DNA of 32,000 nt from Patescibacteria group bacterium (GTDB lineage: Bacteria > Patescibacteriota > Patescibacteriia > 2-01-FULL-39-33), in the NCBI GenBank assembly GCA_041649575.1, contig JBAZMW010000003.1, positions 159,559 to 191,558 on the forward strand, in the 5' to 3' direction. Below are positions 11,374-32,000 of this stretch, piece by piece (within the stretch, counting starts at the first letter, position 1; every line of letters starts with the position of its first letter). The notes beneath the pieces are model-generated. The model was not told the DNA's origin, did no database searches, and was given only the letters and a program-made list of their open reading frames with translations. The translations under genes were made by a program, and so were the position numbers.

Positions 11374-11399
11374 TATTTTTGATATTTATGGATTACTGC

Positions 11400-11463
11400 C
11401 CCCGCCAGAATGACTCTGTCGGGCTGGCGCCCGACTGAACGGCGTTCAGCCGTTCGGGCGGGG
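11400..11463. repeat. degenerate member of the CCCCG-(Y)-(R)-GAAT three-way-junction element family
   Basis: Outer stem CCCCGCC / GGCGGGG encloses hairpins GTCGGGC-tggc-GCCCGAC and GAACGGC-gttca-GCCGTTC. Its 5' end CCCCGCCAGAAT resembles CCCCGTAGAAT of the next element. Confidence 0.5.
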
Positions 11464-11473
11464 CTCAGTCTTG

Positions 11474-11524
11474 CCCCGTAGAATACTGCTAAAGCAGTAG
11501 CGCCAGAGGCGCTATTCTACGGGG
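11474..11524. repeat. perfect 51-nt three-way-junction element (copy 1)
   Basis: 11-bp outer stem CCCCGTAGAAT / ATTCTACGGGG directly encloses ACTGC-taaa-GCAGT and AGCGCC-aga-GGCGCT, with no unpaired junction bases. Confidence 0.7.
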
Positions 11525-11528
11525 TGAA

Positions 11529-11563
11529 GTTAGAGCGCTCCCCCTGTCACGGAAGAGGGTCGC
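11529..11563 (+). pseudogene. decayed internal fragment of tRNA-Asp (D-stem 3' half to start of T-stem)
   Basis: GTTAGAGCGCTCCCCCTGTCACGGAAGAGGGTCGC matches GTTAGAGCGCTCCCCTGTCACGGGAGAGGTCGC of the intact gene, with 2 single-base indels and 1 mismatch. Confidence 0.7.
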
Positions 11564-11704
11564 CGTAGGCGACGGGCAGAAGCGAGCCATGAGCAAAGCG
11601 AATGAAACGAGCGTAGATGAATGCGACCATGGGAGCATTCGGCTCTGCCAGGAAACATCGGGTGCAACCCGCGACCGTCAAACTTTTTACAAGTTAATAT
11701 TTAT

Positions 11705-11778
11705 GGATTGGTAGCTCAGTTGGTTAGAGCGCTCCCCTGTCACGGGAGAGGTCGCGGGTTCGAGTCCCGTCCAGTCCG
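11705..11778 (+). tRNA. tRNA-Asp (anticodon GTC)
   Basis: Hand-folded cloverleaf with acceptor GGATTGG/CCAGTCC, D arm GCTC-AGTTGGTTA-GAGC, and anticodon arm CTCCC-CTGTCAC-GGGAG. T arm is GCGGG-TTCGAGT-CCCGT and the discriminator is G. CCA is not encoded. Confidence 0.9.
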
Positions 11779-11789
11779 CTGGATAAAAC

Positions 11790-27807: not shown

Positions 27808-28995
27808 TTGCCGATTTACGGCCGCTACCTCTGGCTAAAAACCAAGCTGGCAAAAAAAACCAACCGCGCCAGCGAAAAAATAATTTTGGTTTTTACCAAT
27901 CGCTATATCATTCATCTACTGGTGCTGGCCATCGGTTTGTTAGTAGTGGGCGTTAATGTTTTGGCCTATGAGACACGCGAGGATTACGGCAAGAACGCCT
28001 TGATTTATAAAATAGTGGGGCTGGAAGACACCTATTTCACCGAAGACACCAGCGGTTCGCAAGAAGAATCTGTGGTTTATAGTTATTTGGAAAAAAACTC
28101 CCAGTTGCAAAGCGAGCCGGCCAGCGCCAACACTGCAGAAACAGATGACGAAATCGACCAATCAGCTTTTGAATTGACACAGGGAGGAGCGGCCCTGGTC
28201 AAACCGGAATTGGCCAGCACCGAAGAAGCCAAAATTGGCGTTAAGGGGCTTAGAAACTACAAAGTGGCGGAGGGCGACACCATCAGCAGTATCGCCGGCA
28301 AATTCGATATTTCCGTTAACACCGTTCTTTGGGCCAATAACTTATCCTTGAATTCTTACATTAAGCCAGGCCAGCAGCTGATTATCCCGCCGGTAAGCGG
28401 CGTAGTCCACACCGTCAAAAAAGGAGACACCCTGGCCAAGATAGCCCAAAGCTATAAAGGCGAATTGGCCCGGATAAAAGATTTCAATAATTTGGATGAT
28501 GAGACCGCTTTAATCGCCGGCGAAAAAATAATCGTGCCGGGCGGAATAATTGTTACCGCCAGAACACCGGCTTACACCCAGGTGGTCACCACCAGAACCG
28601 CCAGTCCGTCAACAATCAATGTGCCTGTCAGCGGCAAAATGGCCTGGCCCAACTCTTGCTACCGTATCACCCAATACTACAAAGGCTGGCGCCATGCGGG
28701 CGTGGATATCGCCTGTCCCTGGGGGGTGGCCATACGAGCGGCCCAGGCCGGCAAAGTCATCAGAGTTCAATATGGCCGAACCGGCTACGGCTATAATATT
28801 ATCATCGACCATGGCGGCGGCAAACAGACCCTCTATGGCCATTTGAGCCGAATCGACGTGGAAGTCGGAGAGTGGGTGGAAAAAGGAGAAGCCATTGCCG
28901 CCGAAGGTTCGACCGGCCGTTCCTCCGGACCGCATTTACATTTTGAGGTGCGCGTTGGCGGCTCGACGGTTAATCCTTTGAGTTATATCAGATAG
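27808..28995 (+). CDS. LysM-domain M23 family peptidoglycan endopeptidase
   Basis: N-terminal TM helix, two LysM repeats (YKVAEGDTISSIAGKF..., HTVKKGDTLAKIAQSY...), and the M23 motifs HAGVDIA and GPHLHFEV. The TTG start is uncertain. Confidence 0.85.
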   Translation: MPIYGRYLWLKTKLAKKTNRASEKIILVFTNRYIIHLLVLAIGLLVVGVNVLAYETREDYGKNALIYKIVGLEDTYFTEDTSGSQEESVVYSYLEKNSQLQSEPASANTAETDDEIDQSAFELTQGGAALVKPELASTEEAKIGVKGLRNYKVAEGDTISSIAGKFDISVNTVLWANNLSLNSYIKPGQQLIIPPVSGVVHTVKKGDTLAKIAQSYKGELARIKDFNNLDDETALIAGEKIIVPGGIIVTARTPAYTQVVTTRTASPSTINVPVSGKMAWPNSCYRITQYYKGWRHAGVDIACPWGVAIRAAQAGKVIRVQYGRTGYGYNIIIDHGGGKQTLYGHLSRIDVEVGEWVEKGEAIAAEGSTGRSSGPHLHFEVRVGGSTVNPLSYIR

Positions 28996-30066
28996 ACAAT
29001 TTGTAATCCTCTGCCTAATCTTATAGCTATTCCCGTGTTTTAACAGTCCTAAATAGGAATTAACGGTTTCTGCTTTAGGATTGTTTTTTATTCTCTTGAA
29101 CATTCTCCGTTTGGCTTTAGCGCGCAGAACGCGGTGATCAAAGAAATGCACCCAGCCCAAGGAATCAAGGCCGGAATTTAGCGTTTTGATAAAAATCTTG
29201 TCGGGATGAAGCGTCAGTTTTAATTTATTTAATAAAAAACCAGCTATTAGTTTAATGATGTTTTCTAAATATCCCCTGTTTTCTGAAAATACAACAAAGT
29301 CATCACAATAACGCAGATAATGTTTTATCTTCAACTGCTGTTTGATAAATTGGTCAAATTCATTTAAATAAATATTAACTAAAAGCTGGGAAGTGAGATT
29401 GCCAAGTGGCAAACCCAGCTCTCCCCCTTTCCAAGGGGGAGTCAGAGGGGGTTTTGAAGATTCTAATAAGACAGAGGATTTCATAACCTCCCCTCGCCCC
29501 TCCTTGGAAAGGAGGGGGAAAGAAATAAAGCTGTCAATTATTTCTTCCAATAGATTTAATATTTTTTGGTCATTGATTTGCCTAGCCAAAATGTCCTTTA
29601 AAATCCAGTGACCAACGCTGGCAAAAAATTTCTTAATATCGCCTTTCAATATCCAGCAGGTTCGGCTGTTGTTCTGGCTAACCTGGTAAGCAAACTTTCT
29701 AAATCTGTTTAAGGCTTTGTGGGTGCCCTTATTAAGTCGGCAGGAATGGGAATCGGCAATGAATTTTCTGTCGAAATATGGATAGAGCTGACGATAGACG
29801 GCGTGATGGACCAGGCGATCGCGCACACTGGCCTTGTGGATGTTTCTGGGCTTGGGATCGCAGATGTTAAACGACTTATAACCGCCATGACGATAATTGC
29901 CATTTGCCAAATCGTGATGAAGGGCGATAAGATTGTCCATGAGACTGAATTCAAATCGCTGGACATCGGCTTTCTGCCTTTTGCCTCGCCGAAATTCCTG
30001 CCAAGCTAAAAGCAAGTTATCTAAAGAAATAATATCTTCAAAAGTATGAGTGAAAACTTTGGCCAT
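28936..30066 (-). CDS. diversity-generating retroelement (DGR) reverse transcriptase
   Basis: RT motifs present: RNIHKASVRDRLVHHAV, GDIKKFFASVGH, LPLGNLTSQLLVNIYLNEFD (the DGR-diagnostic [I/L]GxxxSQ) and YLRYCDDFVVF. No maturase or endonuclease domain. TR, VR and avd lie adjacent. Confidence 0.9.
   Translation of the reverse strand: MAKVFTHTFEDIISLDNLLLAWQEFRRGKRQKADVQRFEFSLMDNLIALHHDLANGNYRHGGYKSFNICDPKPRNIHKASVRDRLVHHAVYRQLYPYFDRKFIADSHSCRLNKGTHKALNRFRKFAYQVSQNNSRTCWILKGDIKKFFASVGHWILKDILARQINDQKILNLLEEIIDSFISFPLLSKEGRGEVMKSSVLLESSKPPLTPPWKGGELGLPLGNLTSQLLVNIYLNEFDQFIKQQLKIKHYLRYCDDFVVFSENRGYLENIIKLIAGFLLNKLKLTLHPDKIFIKTLNSGLDSLGWVHFFDHRVLRAKAKRRMFKRIKNNPKAETVNSYLGLLKHGNSYKIRQRITNCLSDITQRINRRAANAHLKM
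29421..29517. repeat. palindromic (MITE/RPE-like) element inserted in-frame in the RT gene
   Basis: Terminal perfect hairpins CTCCCCCTT-tcc-AAGGGGGAG (29421-29441) and CCCCTCCTT-gga-AAGGAGGGG (29497-29517) are related to each other as inverted repeats. The region encodes FPLLSKEGRGEVMKSSVLLESSKPPLTPPWKGGEL between RT motifs 3 and 4. Confidence 0.6.
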
Positions 30067-30113: not shown

Positions 30114-30485
30114 TTGGAAATTTTGCATAAAACACAAACGCTTTATAGGCTCTGGCATGACTGGCTAAAAGATTTTCCCAAGTTGTCGCGCTATACGCTA
30201 GGAATCAGGGTTGATAATTTATTTATCGAACTGCTTGAAAATCTTTTTGCGGCCAGCTACTTGCCTCGACAAGAAAAATCACCCCTGATTAAAATCATCA
30301 TCAAAAAAATAGATTTGTTAAAATTTTTGATTTGGCTAAGCTGGGAGCTAAGGCTGCTTAGCGACAACAAATATCAGAATCTTTCGCTGCCGCTGGAAGA
30401 AATCGGACGCTCGGCCTGGAACTGGGGAAACCGTTTAGAAAAAACGCCGCCGCTCTGGGCGGAGGCGCAAAAACAAAACGGCTAG
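30114..30485 (+). CDS. avd: Avd-like accessory variability determinant (four-helix-bundle protein)
   Basis: FPKLSRYTLGIRVDNLFIELLENLFAA and LLKFLIWLSWELRLLS...LEEIGRSAWNW parallel the helices of Bordetella-phage Avd (IPRKHGVAREMF..., LRFWLRFL...AEVGRILGSW), from memory. The TTG start is uncertain. The gene is on the strand opposite to RT and TR. Confidence 0.75.
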   Translation: MEILHKTQTLYRLWHDWLKDFPKLSRYTLGIRVDNLFIELLENLFAASYLPRQEKSPLIKIIIKKIDLLKFLIWLSWELRLLSDNKYQNLSLPLEEIGRSAWNWGNRLEKTPPLWAEAQKQNG

Positions 30486-30589
30486 CGGACGACGGCGAAC
30501 CGACAGATGTGGTTCCAATCGTTCTTGGTGTGGTTGACGTACAGGTTGCGCTTAGCATCGTTCCTGTTGAGGTACAGCACCCTGTCGCC
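30485..30589 (-). repeat. DGR template repeat (TR)
   Basis: 105 bp homologous to both VRs. Read on the minus strand it encodes GDRVLYLNRNDAKRNLYVNHTKNDWNHICRFAVVR with 6 AAC codons and 27 adenines. Its last 23 nt (TCTGTCGGTTCGCCGTCGTCCGC) contain no adenine and are identical in the TR and both VRs. Confidence 0.9.
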
Positions 30590-30874
30590 ATCTGTAATGT
30601 GCCGCTGGCCATCAGAACCACTGCCAATTGAACCGCCCAAAAGGCGTCTCTTGGCTGTATCTTGTTTGGGATTTTTACCCTGTCAAATAACATTTTAGAC
30701 CATCGCTTGTGTTTTATCATCCAAAAACCAAAGACATGGCTACAATTTTCTGTTGATATATTTAACGGGGTTTAATCCGCCAGCAAACGGCACCGAGCAG
30801 TTTTTGTTTTTATTTTTGGTATTCCTAAGCCGGTGGCCGAGGAAATATTAACCATATTTATCTTAAATAAATTT

Positions 30875-30932: not shown

Positions 30933-30977
30933 GGGGTCAAGGTCCAAGGGATTGTTGGGGTCAACTGCCCGTCTTGC

Positions 30978-31568
30978 CTACGCTTGCGCTTCGGCAATTC
31001 GGTCAGGCTCGCGGACGACGGCGAACCGACAGACGTGGCGCCAACCGCCCTTGGTGAGGCGGACGTACAGGCCGCGCCCTGCACCGTCCCTGCTGAGGTA
31101 CAGCACCCTGCCACCGGTGGGAGCCGCGACAATCGGGAACTGCCGCTGCAGGTCGGGCTGCTTGGCACCCAGAGTCAATGTTTCGCGGGGCGTGGCTCGG
31201 CGGTAACCGCGCTTCTTGGCTTCGGCCGTGGCATCGTCATCGGAAATGTCGTAGCCCAAGTGTAGCAGTTCAACCACGACTGTTTCCTTCTTGTCTTCGG
31301 TGGGCAGGGGGACGTTGGCTTCGGTGAAGTCGCCGTCAACCCAGTAGCAGGCGATGGCCTCGCGCAACTGCTCACGGGTGAACGAGTGGTCGATGTCGAG
31401 GGCAACCGCGCTCCTCAAACGTTGGCCGACTGCCGCGATTTCTCTGCCGATCACTTCGAGCAAATAGGCGTCCTGACTCACGAACCGAATGTCGCTGGCC
31501 TCACCGCCTTGCGCTACCACTGCTTCGGTGATCACTTGCGCGAGAACTTCAGGATTAATGGTGTTCAT
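30978..31568 (-). CDS. DGR variable (target) protein 1
   Basis: 196 aa, with AAGGAGG 6 nt before the ATG. VR1 occupies the C-terminal ~45 aa. No signal peptide or TM helix is visible. A hand-counted 60-nt line is 72% GC. Confidence 0.85.
   Translation of the reverse strand: MNTINPEVLAQVITEAVVAQGGEASDIRFVSQDAYLLEVIGREIAAVGQRLRSAVALDIDHSFTREQLREAIACYWVDGDFTEANVPLPTEDKKETVVVELLHLGYDISDDDATAEAKKRGYRRATPRETLTLGAKQPDLQRQFPIVAAPTGGRVLYLSRDGAGRGLYVRLTKGGWRHVCRFAVVREPDRIAEAQA
31011..31115 (-). repeat. DGR variable repeat VR1
   Basis: Ungapped alignment to the TR at offset +526. There are 19 mismatches, 17 of them at TR adenines (minus-strand sense). Encodes GGRVLYLSRDGAGRGLYVRLTKGGWRHVCRFAVVR. Confidence 0.9.
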
Positions 31569-31596
31569 TGTTGTTCCTCCTTAATGGTCAGGGTTC

Positions 31597-31648
31597 ACCC
31601 CGTGGAATCCCGACTTCGTCGGGACCGCTTCGCGGTATTCCACGGGGT
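31597..31648. repeat. perfect three-way-junction element (copy 2), between the two DGR target genes
   Basis: Outer stem (A)CCCCGTGGAAT / ATTCCACGGGG(T) directly encloses CCCGAC-ttc-GTCGGG and ACCGC-ttc-GCGGT. Same architecture as 11474-11524, with a compensatory A:T to G:C change in the outer stem. Confidence 0.7.
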
Positions 31649-31656
31649 ACATGGTT

Positions 31657-32000
31657 TCAGGGTTTCAACTGCTCGCGGACGACGGCGAACCGACAGAGGA
31701 GGTTCCAATCGATCTTGGGGTGGATGACGAACAGGTGGCGCCGAGCATCGCCCCTGCTGAGGCACAGCACCCTGCCGCCGGTGGGGGCTGCGATGATCGG
31801 GAACTGCCGTTGCAGGTCCGGGTATTTGGCGCCCAGAGTGAGCACTTCGCGAGGCGTGGCCCGACGATAGCCGCGCTTCTTGGCTTCGGCCGTGGCATCG
31901 TCATCGGAAATGTCGTAGCCCAAGTGTAGCAGTTCAACCACGACTGTTTCCTTCTTGTCTTCGGTGGGCAGGGGGACGTTGGCTTCGGTGAAGCCGCCGC
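31657..32000 (-). CDS. DGR variable (target) protein 2, 5' end beyond the right edge
   Basis: Paralog of target 1. The frame stays open to base 32000 (...GGFTEANVPLPTEDKKETVVVELLHLGYD...), so the track start at 31941 is an artefact. VR2 lies at the C-terminus. Confidence 0.85.
   Translation of the reverse strand, partial: GGFTEANVPLPTEDKKETVVVELLHLGYDISDDDATAEAKKRGYRRATPREVLTLGAKYPDLQRQFPIIAAPTGGRVLCLSRGDARRHLFVIHPKIDWNLLCRFAVVREQLKP
31675..31779 (-). repeat. DGR variable repeat VR2
   Basis: Ungapped alignment to the TR at offset +1190. There are 14 mismatches, all at TR adenines. Encodes GGRVLCLSRGDARRHLFVIHPKIDWNLLCRFAVVR. Confidence 0.9.

Follow-up and report, generated by a model that had tools for sequence, protein, structure and literature searches.

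What does a short, branched palindrome do between two target genes of a diversity-generating retroelement (DGR), and how is it related to its twin at a tRNA-Asp locus of the same contig? The DNA analysed here, called the window, is a stretch of 32,000 nucleotides forming the last 32 kb of contig C3 in a Patescibacteria genome (G000) of five contigs and 0.92 Mb, estimated to be about 98% complete. A preliminary description had proposed that both sequences share a fold conserved through compensatory changes and that the fold may serve the DGR; the first part of this interpretation stands, whereas a general function in DGRs is not supported. The two sequences, hereafter copies A and B, are probably members of a family of short, non-autonomous mobile palindromes similar to MITEs (miniature inverted-repeat transposable elements) and to Rickettsia palindromic elements (RPEs). 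The relevant features of the window are listed below, R1 being a covariance model built from family members and run on this genome and on 33 sister genomes.

11390 to 11700, plus strand: tRNA-Asp-like sequence hosting copy B, recognised by direct repeats with tRNA-Asp, conserved in G026 and G003, no Rfam match
11400 to 11463, plus strand: GC-rich multi-hairpin insert of a different repeat family, no R1 match
11469 to 11529, plus strand: element copy B, the "twin" (R1 65.4 bits, E 5.2e-17; fold z -7.0)
11705 to 11779, plus strand: intact tRNA-Asp (GTC), found by ARAGORN (Rfam tRNA, 69.6 bits)
28936 to 30066, minus strand: DGR reverse transcriptase (RT; Pfam RVT_1, E 5e-18)
30114 to 30485, plus strand: Avd-like accessory gene (Pfam bAvd, E 9e-10), divergent from the RT
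30477 to 30589, minus strand: template repeat (TR) of the first DGR, identified as a repeat family with an adenine-specific pattern
30673 to 30775, minus strand: weak degenerate member of the family, by sequence and fold (R1 23.8 bits, E 7e-4)
30965 to 31006, minus strand: imperfect GC hairpin after the IMH of VR1, by fold (CTGaCCG..TTGCC..GGCAA..CGGgCAG)
31003 to 31115, minus strand: variable repeat VR1, 3' part of target 1 (ORF 30978-31568), an 80% repeat of the TR
31593 to 31652, minus strand: element copy A, a perfect three-way junction (R1 70.2 bits, E 1.6e-18)
31667 to 31779, minus strand: VR2, 3' part of target 2 (ORF 31657-32000, cut by the contig end), an 86% repeat of the TR

The two junctions were indeed found where they had been described, at 31597-31648 and 11474-11524, sequence and fold being in agreement. 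The outer stem of copy A is formed by CCCCGTGGAAT (31598-31608) pairing with ATTCCACGGGG (31637-31647), with an additional A31597-T31648 pair, and encloses the hairpins CCCGAC-TTC-GTCGGG (31609-31623) and ACCGC-TTC-GCGGT (31624-31636), the whole folding at -36.4/-37.4 kcal/mol (z -4.1/-5.0). Similarly, CCCCGTAGAAT (11474-11484) pairs with ATTCTACGGGG (11514-11524) in copy B, around the hairpins ACTGC-TAAA-GCAGT and AGCGCC-AGA-GGCGCT. On both strands of both copies, the minimum-energy fold is a gap-free three-way junction of -32 to -37 kcal/mol, with z between -4.1 and -7.0 and none of 200 shuffles as stable. The 11-bp outer stems of the two copies differ solely by one compensatory G:C to A:T pair, and the inner hairpins keep the fold while being unrelated in sequence, both as previously noticed. 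The 11-mer arm occurs four times in the window when up to one mismatch is allowed (0.84 expected); the full pattern of A and B is present in two places only of the 920-kb genome, i.e. the two copies themselves, and its strict form had no match in 33 genomes of the same family.

Copy A is placed between the stop codon of target 2 and the start codon of target 1, and the distances given in the preliminary description required small corrections. The junction is located 8 nt past the target-2 stop (31657-31659), instead of 9, and 28 nt separate its end from the ATG of target 1 (31566-31568), instead of about 30; it begins 22 nt past the last base of the IMH shared with the TR (31671), a value that replaces the former 27.

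The covariance-model search that the preliminary description had proposed as a check retrieved further copies, so that the genome holds about eight, four strong and four weaker. The strong ones are copies A (31593-31652) and B (11469-11529) in the window, C1:219346-219405 and C2:175223-175282. The C1 copy adds 18 residues in frame (TRPVKSGEAGPLEIVFNR) to a UvrA-like protein, an insert that 11 relatives lack, and the C2 copy lies in frame in the B5 domain of pheT, whose protein is 7-8 residues longer than in five relatives. Among the weaker matches, C4:112434-112481 is an extended stem-loop in the 5' third of the 23S rRNA gene, C4:46564-46673 occupies a tRNA-Pro gene, the window member at 30673-30775 has arms ACCCCGTTAAAT...ATTTGACAGGGT around a 77-nt AT-rich interior between the terminator hairpin of target 1 and the TR, and C3:77506-77548 precedes the target gene of a second DGR, in its leader. 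R1 also matched 15 of the 33 sister genomes, with 1 to 38 strand-hits each, so that the genomes carry from none to about 19 elements, a patchiness of copy number that is typical of a mobile repeat.

Sites filled in one genome and empty in relatives are further markers of mobility and were identified at the uvrA-like gene, tRNA-Pro, tsaE, an epimerase gene and one locus of an Ignavibacteria-like MAG (G034), where a filled and an empty version form a pair. The tsaE site is filled in G031 and G032 and empty in G029 and G019. In a verrucomicrobial NAD-epimerase, a 22-residue element insert is present in nine MAGs and in none of about 25 orthologues. Family members were thus encountered in intergenic spacers, in frame in protein genes, in rRNA and in tRNA loops, and streamlined genomes of 0.9 Mb tolerate them in essential genes (pheT, tsaE, UvrA-like, 23S rRNA, tRNA loops). 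The family is therefore relevant to gene calling, to tRNA and rRNA annotation and to the persistence of mobile DNA in reduced genomes.

Two of these sites deserve a closer description. The tsaE inserts (G031, L268 728-793; G032:C39:4501-4542) occupy the same codon position, directly after the host GTTTAC. Of these two congeners, one carries a three-way junction of the GTTAAAT type and the other a simple hairpin of the GTGGAAT type, two other genera being empty; this site may represent either a recurrent hot spot of insertion or a turnover of the element in place. In G034 (L016 1865-2037 and other loci), a 170-nt MITE with its own inverted ends (AAGGGTATCTCTAA) surrounds the core element; this MITE has a likely TAAA or TTAA duplication and is flanked by direct iterations of ATCCGYG-like heptamers.

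The family can be defined as units of about 40-110 nt, typically 50-66 nt, with inverted ends of 16-17 nt (ATTYA-CCYGTNNAAT ... ATTNNACRGG-TRAAT) and a variable interior. The ends ATTYACCCYGTNNAAT recur in dozens of copies around interiors of 10-85 nt. In Patescibacteria, the interior usually consists of two short hairpins, which yields the gap-free three-way junction, and the commonest form reads CCYGTTAAAT...ATTTAACRGG around such a hairpin pair. A scan of prokaryotes (one genome per species) with the pattern CCCCGTRGAAT-N15-45-ATTCYACGGGG gave more than 119 loci among the matches listed, compared to about 4 expected by chance as estimated from the size of the collection. These belong to Verrucomicrobia, Ignavibacteria-like 'Bacteroidetes' MAGs, WOR-3, Bipolaricaulota, Binatia, Desulfobacterota, Saccharibacteria and other Patescibacteria, with 75 arms counted in one Ignavibacteria-like MAG and 26 in another MAG. 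Their stem is usually 4-5 pairs longer (GTTTA/TAAAC, GCTCG/CGAGC) and their unit lengths peak at 59 and 62 nt.

The covariation claimed from two copies persists in larger sets. In an alignment of 21 members, 85.8% of the structure cells are paired (71.6% in shuffles), and the free positions of the outer stem read GC10/UA9/AU1/CG1 and AU13/GC8 with no unpaired cell. Similarly, an unfiltered scan of a 401-genome sample of the phylum with a less strict pattern, in which two positions of the stem could vary freely, gave matches in 24 genomes, and both free positions were complementary in 30 of 39 matches. Arms are constant between phyla and interiors divergent, with the caveat that the search pattern itself fixed those arm bases; with the same caveat, the conservation of the arms across phyla hints at a possible constraint beyond selfish spread.

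No family of Rfam 15 matches the elements of the window or of 18 further loci, either at the gathering cut-off or at E up to 10; the only Rfam matches were tmRNA, tRNA, TPP and LSU rRNA, none of them at an element (the tmRNA gene of the window, at 2110-2501, scored 111.6 bits). Literature searches for the arm sequence string returned unrelated PCR primers only, and those on CPR with MITEs or palindromic repeats gave nothing relevant to the family. Being absent from Rfam 15 and from the publications found, the family is apparently undescribed so far.

Targets 1 and 2 are tandem paralogues on the minus strand (87% repeat). Over a 100-nt core, VR1 differs from the TR at 16 adenines and one T, VR2 at 13 positions that are all TR adenines, and 18 adenine sites distinguish VR1 from VR2; both VRs were thus diversified. 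The hairpin at 30965-31006 behind VR1 corresponds to the canonical DGR hairpin found in relatives, and VR2 is followed by none. Ten related targets were examined: several have CTGCCYGCC-GGTA-GGCRGGCAG immediately past the IMH, and the three-way-junction element was found in none of the ten. The genome encodes a second DGR on the same contig, arranged as follows:

C3:74705-77411: second DGR, whole locus
C3:74705-75724, minus strand: RT
C3:75704-76096, plus strand: avd-like gene
C3:76149-76256: TR
C3:76707-76814: VR

The VR of this second DGR lies in a 242-aa target and has no obvious canonical hairpin. The leader of the target contains, besides the element at 77506-77548, a CTGCCT-CAGG-TAGGCAG hairpin, and is located downstream of tRNA-Tyr and of a consensus promoter. 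Both DGRs exhibit an unusual cassette order: the avd-like gene and the RT are head to head, and the TR, on the other strand, extends over the 3' end of avd. Paralogues of the DGR targets are truncated at four contig ends (position 32000 of the window, C1:2-292, C4:3-236 and C5:113550-113684), indicating that the target family exceeds the two copies of the window and that the assembly was fragmented by these repeats. The paralogue at C1:2-292 and target 1 share their post-VR hairpin and terminator. A search of metagenomes for close relatives of target 1, in which the spacer between targets 2 and 1 might be empty, found none.

The preliminary description had considered a role of the element in target recognition and had named an association of copies with VRs among its checks. 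The copies are scattered without positional association, which, in the terms of that description, marks a generic REP-like repeat. Homologues of RT, Avd or targets were found at none of 120 listed loci from other phyla. Likewise, of about 80 listed copies in the sister genomes, not one lies less than 36 kb from a DGR RT on its own contig. The closest metagenomic copies have the first hairpin, ACCGC-RAA-GCGGT, in common and mostly lie just past a terminator or a T-rich run, none of them near DGR genes. Since copies occur elsewhere without DGR genes and related targets carry another hairpin, a general function in DGRs is not supported. The element is not a DGR component by family membership, and its site beside the DGR is most likely incidental; a tempting but unsupported DGR annotation is thereby removed. 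Still, the two DGR loci, which make up about 6 kb out of 920 kb, contain three of the about eight copies of the genome in their non-coding DNA. This is more than chance and may reflect either permissive non-coding space or a local function.

Such a local function could have arisen by exaptation, the inserted junction now supplying the hairpin or cruciform downstream of VR2 and keeping target 2 open to mutagenic homing; we regard this as unlikely. The hairpins of DGR targets, as known from phage BPP-1, have a stem of 7-10 bp and a GRNA loop and are found 4-34 bp from the VR (Guo et al., 2011; PMC3240598). Copy A resembles them as a GC-rich foldable element within this downstream range, 22 nt past the IMH, and is the only foldable sequence within 35 nt, none other lying between the end of the VR2 IMH (31671) and the junction. 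A GC hairpin follows the IMH directly in VR1 and related targets and is absent at VR2, which diversified on its own (13 adenine sites compared to the TR, 18 compared to VR1). Lacking a GRNA hairpin and yet diversified at adenines only, VR2 might use the junction as its cruciform, and the presence of three family members in the two DGR loci of this genome would be in line with it. However, the canonical hairpin is a single stem with a 4-nt GRNA loop (GGTA in the relatives of this DGR) and a sequence-dependent role, whereas the element is branched, with a stem of 11-12 bp, two hairpins and GAA triloops, and occurs mostly away from DGRs. Moreover, the other copies at DGR loci are upstream of a target (C3:77506-77548) or of a TR (30673-30775) and not behind a VR, the sister genomes exhibit no association with DGRs, the VR of the second DGR also does without an obvious canonical hairpin, and the diversification of VR2 may predate the insertion. 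By extension, mobile hairpins could represent portable 'target tags' of DGRs that land behind an IMH-bearing paralogue, supply the homing cruciform and thus recruited or retained VR2. This idea appears rather doubtful to us; if true, it would tie the evolution of multi-target DGRs to a selfish repeat that spans several phyla.

A function at the RNA level, where the long outer stem would be a processing or stabilising signal (e.g., an RNase III site or a block to 3'-exonucleases) punctuating polycistronic, pre-tRNA and pre-rRNA transcripts, is improbable. It would agree with the many Patescibacteria copies found in short co-directional spacers, 4-26 nt from stop and start codons, with the copy inside 23S rRNA, which recalls intervening sequences, and with the arm pair that brackets a complete tRNA. 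One strand often has AAA, GAA or GNRA-like hairpin loops, and it is on this strand that the Y-R pair reads U-G in each of the three copies where it is a wobble. On the contrary, the orientation relative to flanking genes is close to even (about 11 sense to 8 antisense), and the copies in the uvrA-like gene, pheT, tsaE and the epimerase gene are in frame and stop-free, which implies that they are translated and not cut out.

That A and B are unrelated look-alike palindromes, as the count of only two exact copies in the genome could suggest, is hardly credible in view of R1 E-values between 1e-17 and 1e-18, of the dozens of family members that sister genomes contain and of more than 119 loci among the matches listed elsewhere against about 4 expected.

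The reading of copies A and B as mobile palindromes is supported by the inverted ends, the variable interior, the filled and empty sites and the lineage-specific expansions. Copy A would then be an insertion into the spacer between targets 2 and 1 and not a designed part of the DGR; it would be co-transcribed with both targets, introducing a junction of -36 kcal/mol in their mRNA. The element may transpose in the form of a folded single strand, aided by an enzyme acting in trans, and the 'peel and paste' chemistry of the HUH/Y1 type would fit best, given that no duplication was seen, the conservation of interior structure over sequence and the frequent TTYAC-like left flank. No direct repeat was seen at the junctions of the uvrA-like, tRNA-Pro and epimerase insertions, which are blurred by divergence or microhomology and give no sign of a classical MITE of the DDE type.

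Several candidate partners and relatives were considered and rejected. No transposase and no autonomous IS with the family ends was found: each of the 20 'single arms' fetched from G034 is paired, at a distance of about 50 nt, with an arm that deviates by one mismatch, and no gene is enclosed; an IS bounded by the arms was hence discarded, each lone arm having a degenerate partner. Y1_Tnp (PF01797) is absent from G000, and the Y1 genes of G034, G035, G037 and G038 have no arms nearby. A RAYT or IS200-type partner was rejected on these grounds, Y1 being missing in G000 and not beside arms elsewhere, and the presence of Y1 genes in this family of genomes being uncorrelated with copy number. The arms also bear what we take to be a likeness to the inverted repeats of ISEcp1-type elements (IS1380) and to the type I-E CRISPR repeat; such a relation was dismissed, as the motif is reversed or the match too short. 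Integron attC sites were excluded by the absence, on inspection, of R''/R' core sites and extrahelical bases.

Several known repeat systems resemble the family. RPEs are repeats of 100-150 bp restricted to Rickettsiales, and we know of no transposase for them. The family is similarly palindromic, with lineage-specific proliferation and copies both intergenic and in frame in protein genes, pheT being invaded in both cases (RPE-7; PMC1779305). It differs from RPEs, as described, by its smaller size, its conserved inverted ends of 16-17 nt, its three-way-junction core and its presence in several phyla, and was found in addition in frame in UvrA-like (+18 aa) and epimerase (+22 aa) proteins and in 23S rRNA. 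With MITEs such as Correia, Nezha and ERIC, it shares a short, non-coding sequence, terminal inverted repeats, variable interiors, filled and empty sites, a variable copy number (0 to about 19 in 34 family genomes) and nesting in other MITEs (G034). However, no target-site duplication was detected at its blurred junctions, and a parent IS sharing its ends was not found either; the element is also smaller than most MITEs and has ends conserved across phyla.

REP/REPIN-RAYT systems and palindromes derived from IS200/IS605 are likewise hairpin repeats, presumably recognised as a folded single strand; they lack target duplication, and none was seen in the family. Its CCCCGTRGAAT variant contains the GTRG motif, whereas the major Patescibacteria variant has GTTA instead; unlike REPs, the element is not only extragenic, has a low copy number and is accompanied by no RAYT gene flanked by arms. 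Finally, one copy resembles the intervening sequences of 23S rRNA, being an extended stem-loop in the 5' third of the 23S gene; to our knowledge, these are not described as a single repeat family common to protein genes, tRNA loops and intergenic DNA. The small three-way-junction core, the cross-phylum ends and a cargo copy replacing the tRNA that it disrupts set the family apart from RPEs and MITEs. Sequence, structure and a covariance model are now given for a family that is common to ultra-small Patescibacteria and several unrelated phyla and appears undescribed.

The cargo copy is located on contig C4:

C4:46459-46859 (L284 560-960), minus strand: tRNA inside tRNA, with the element at 46564-46673, from R1 and sister-genome comparison

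Here, the arms CGCCCTGTTAAAT...ATTTAACAGGGTGAA enclose a complete, foreign-looking tRNA-Pro(TGG), and together they interrupt the resident tRNA-Pro(TGG) at its anticodon loop, a gene that is uninterrupted in G010, G026, G027, G030 and G006. As the cargo is the sole tRNA-Pro(TGG) of the genome, loss of the element would remove that tRNA. A destroyed tRNA-Pro together with a carried replacement suggests an addiction-like route by which a tiny element becomes irremovable. The case is so far unique among the copies examined, and carriage of tRNA as a family-wide trait was rejected, six other long copies (100-112 nt; G004, G014, G031) being AT-rich and devoid of tRNA.

Copy B is also integrated in a tRNA-related sequence, namely within the D loop of the tRNA-Asp-like sequence upstream of tRNA-Asp (GCTC AGT cttg[element]tgaa GTTA GAGC), as deduced from the repeats with tRNA-Asp and the alignment with relatives. 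This host sequence (11390-11700) retains the 5' acceptor strand, the D arm and a remnant of the anticodon arm in which the GTC loop is preserved. GC-rich hairpin inserts interrupt all of these parts, and the anticodon stem is broken in G000. In G026 and G003, the anticodon stem of the equivalent sequence matches, and the acceptor strand resembles that of their own real tRNA-Asp. Differing GC hairpins occupy the same three structural positions in G000 and at least two other genera. The sequence could be either a decayed duplicate whose similarity is maintained by gene conversion or a tRNA-like leader with a function.

One of these inserts, at 11400-11463, had been considered as a degenerate third member of the family, which proved wrong, since it has no R1 match and its 3' half (11428-11462) is 100% identical to C4:47367-47401 of the same genome, a different repeat. 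An insert of the same type occupies the same position in a tRNA-Ile-like sequence that precedes tRNA-Ile(GAT) on C4 (about 47290-47420). A 60-nt stretch of the window at 11596-11654 (AAGCGAATGAAACGAGCGTAGATGAATGCGACC...GGCTCTGCC), without Rfam match, recurs many times in sister genomes, above all G031 and G032, and is probably another small repeat family. Lastly, tRNA-Ser(CGA) and tRNA-Gly(TCC) (C4:89990-90230, L286; C4:46150-46400) are each followed downstream by about 200 nt of GC-rich hairpins with stems GGGTTGGCAG...CTGCCAACCC; the 3' end of the tRNA is then repeated in direct orientation, and these tails look like tiny att-flanked insertions.
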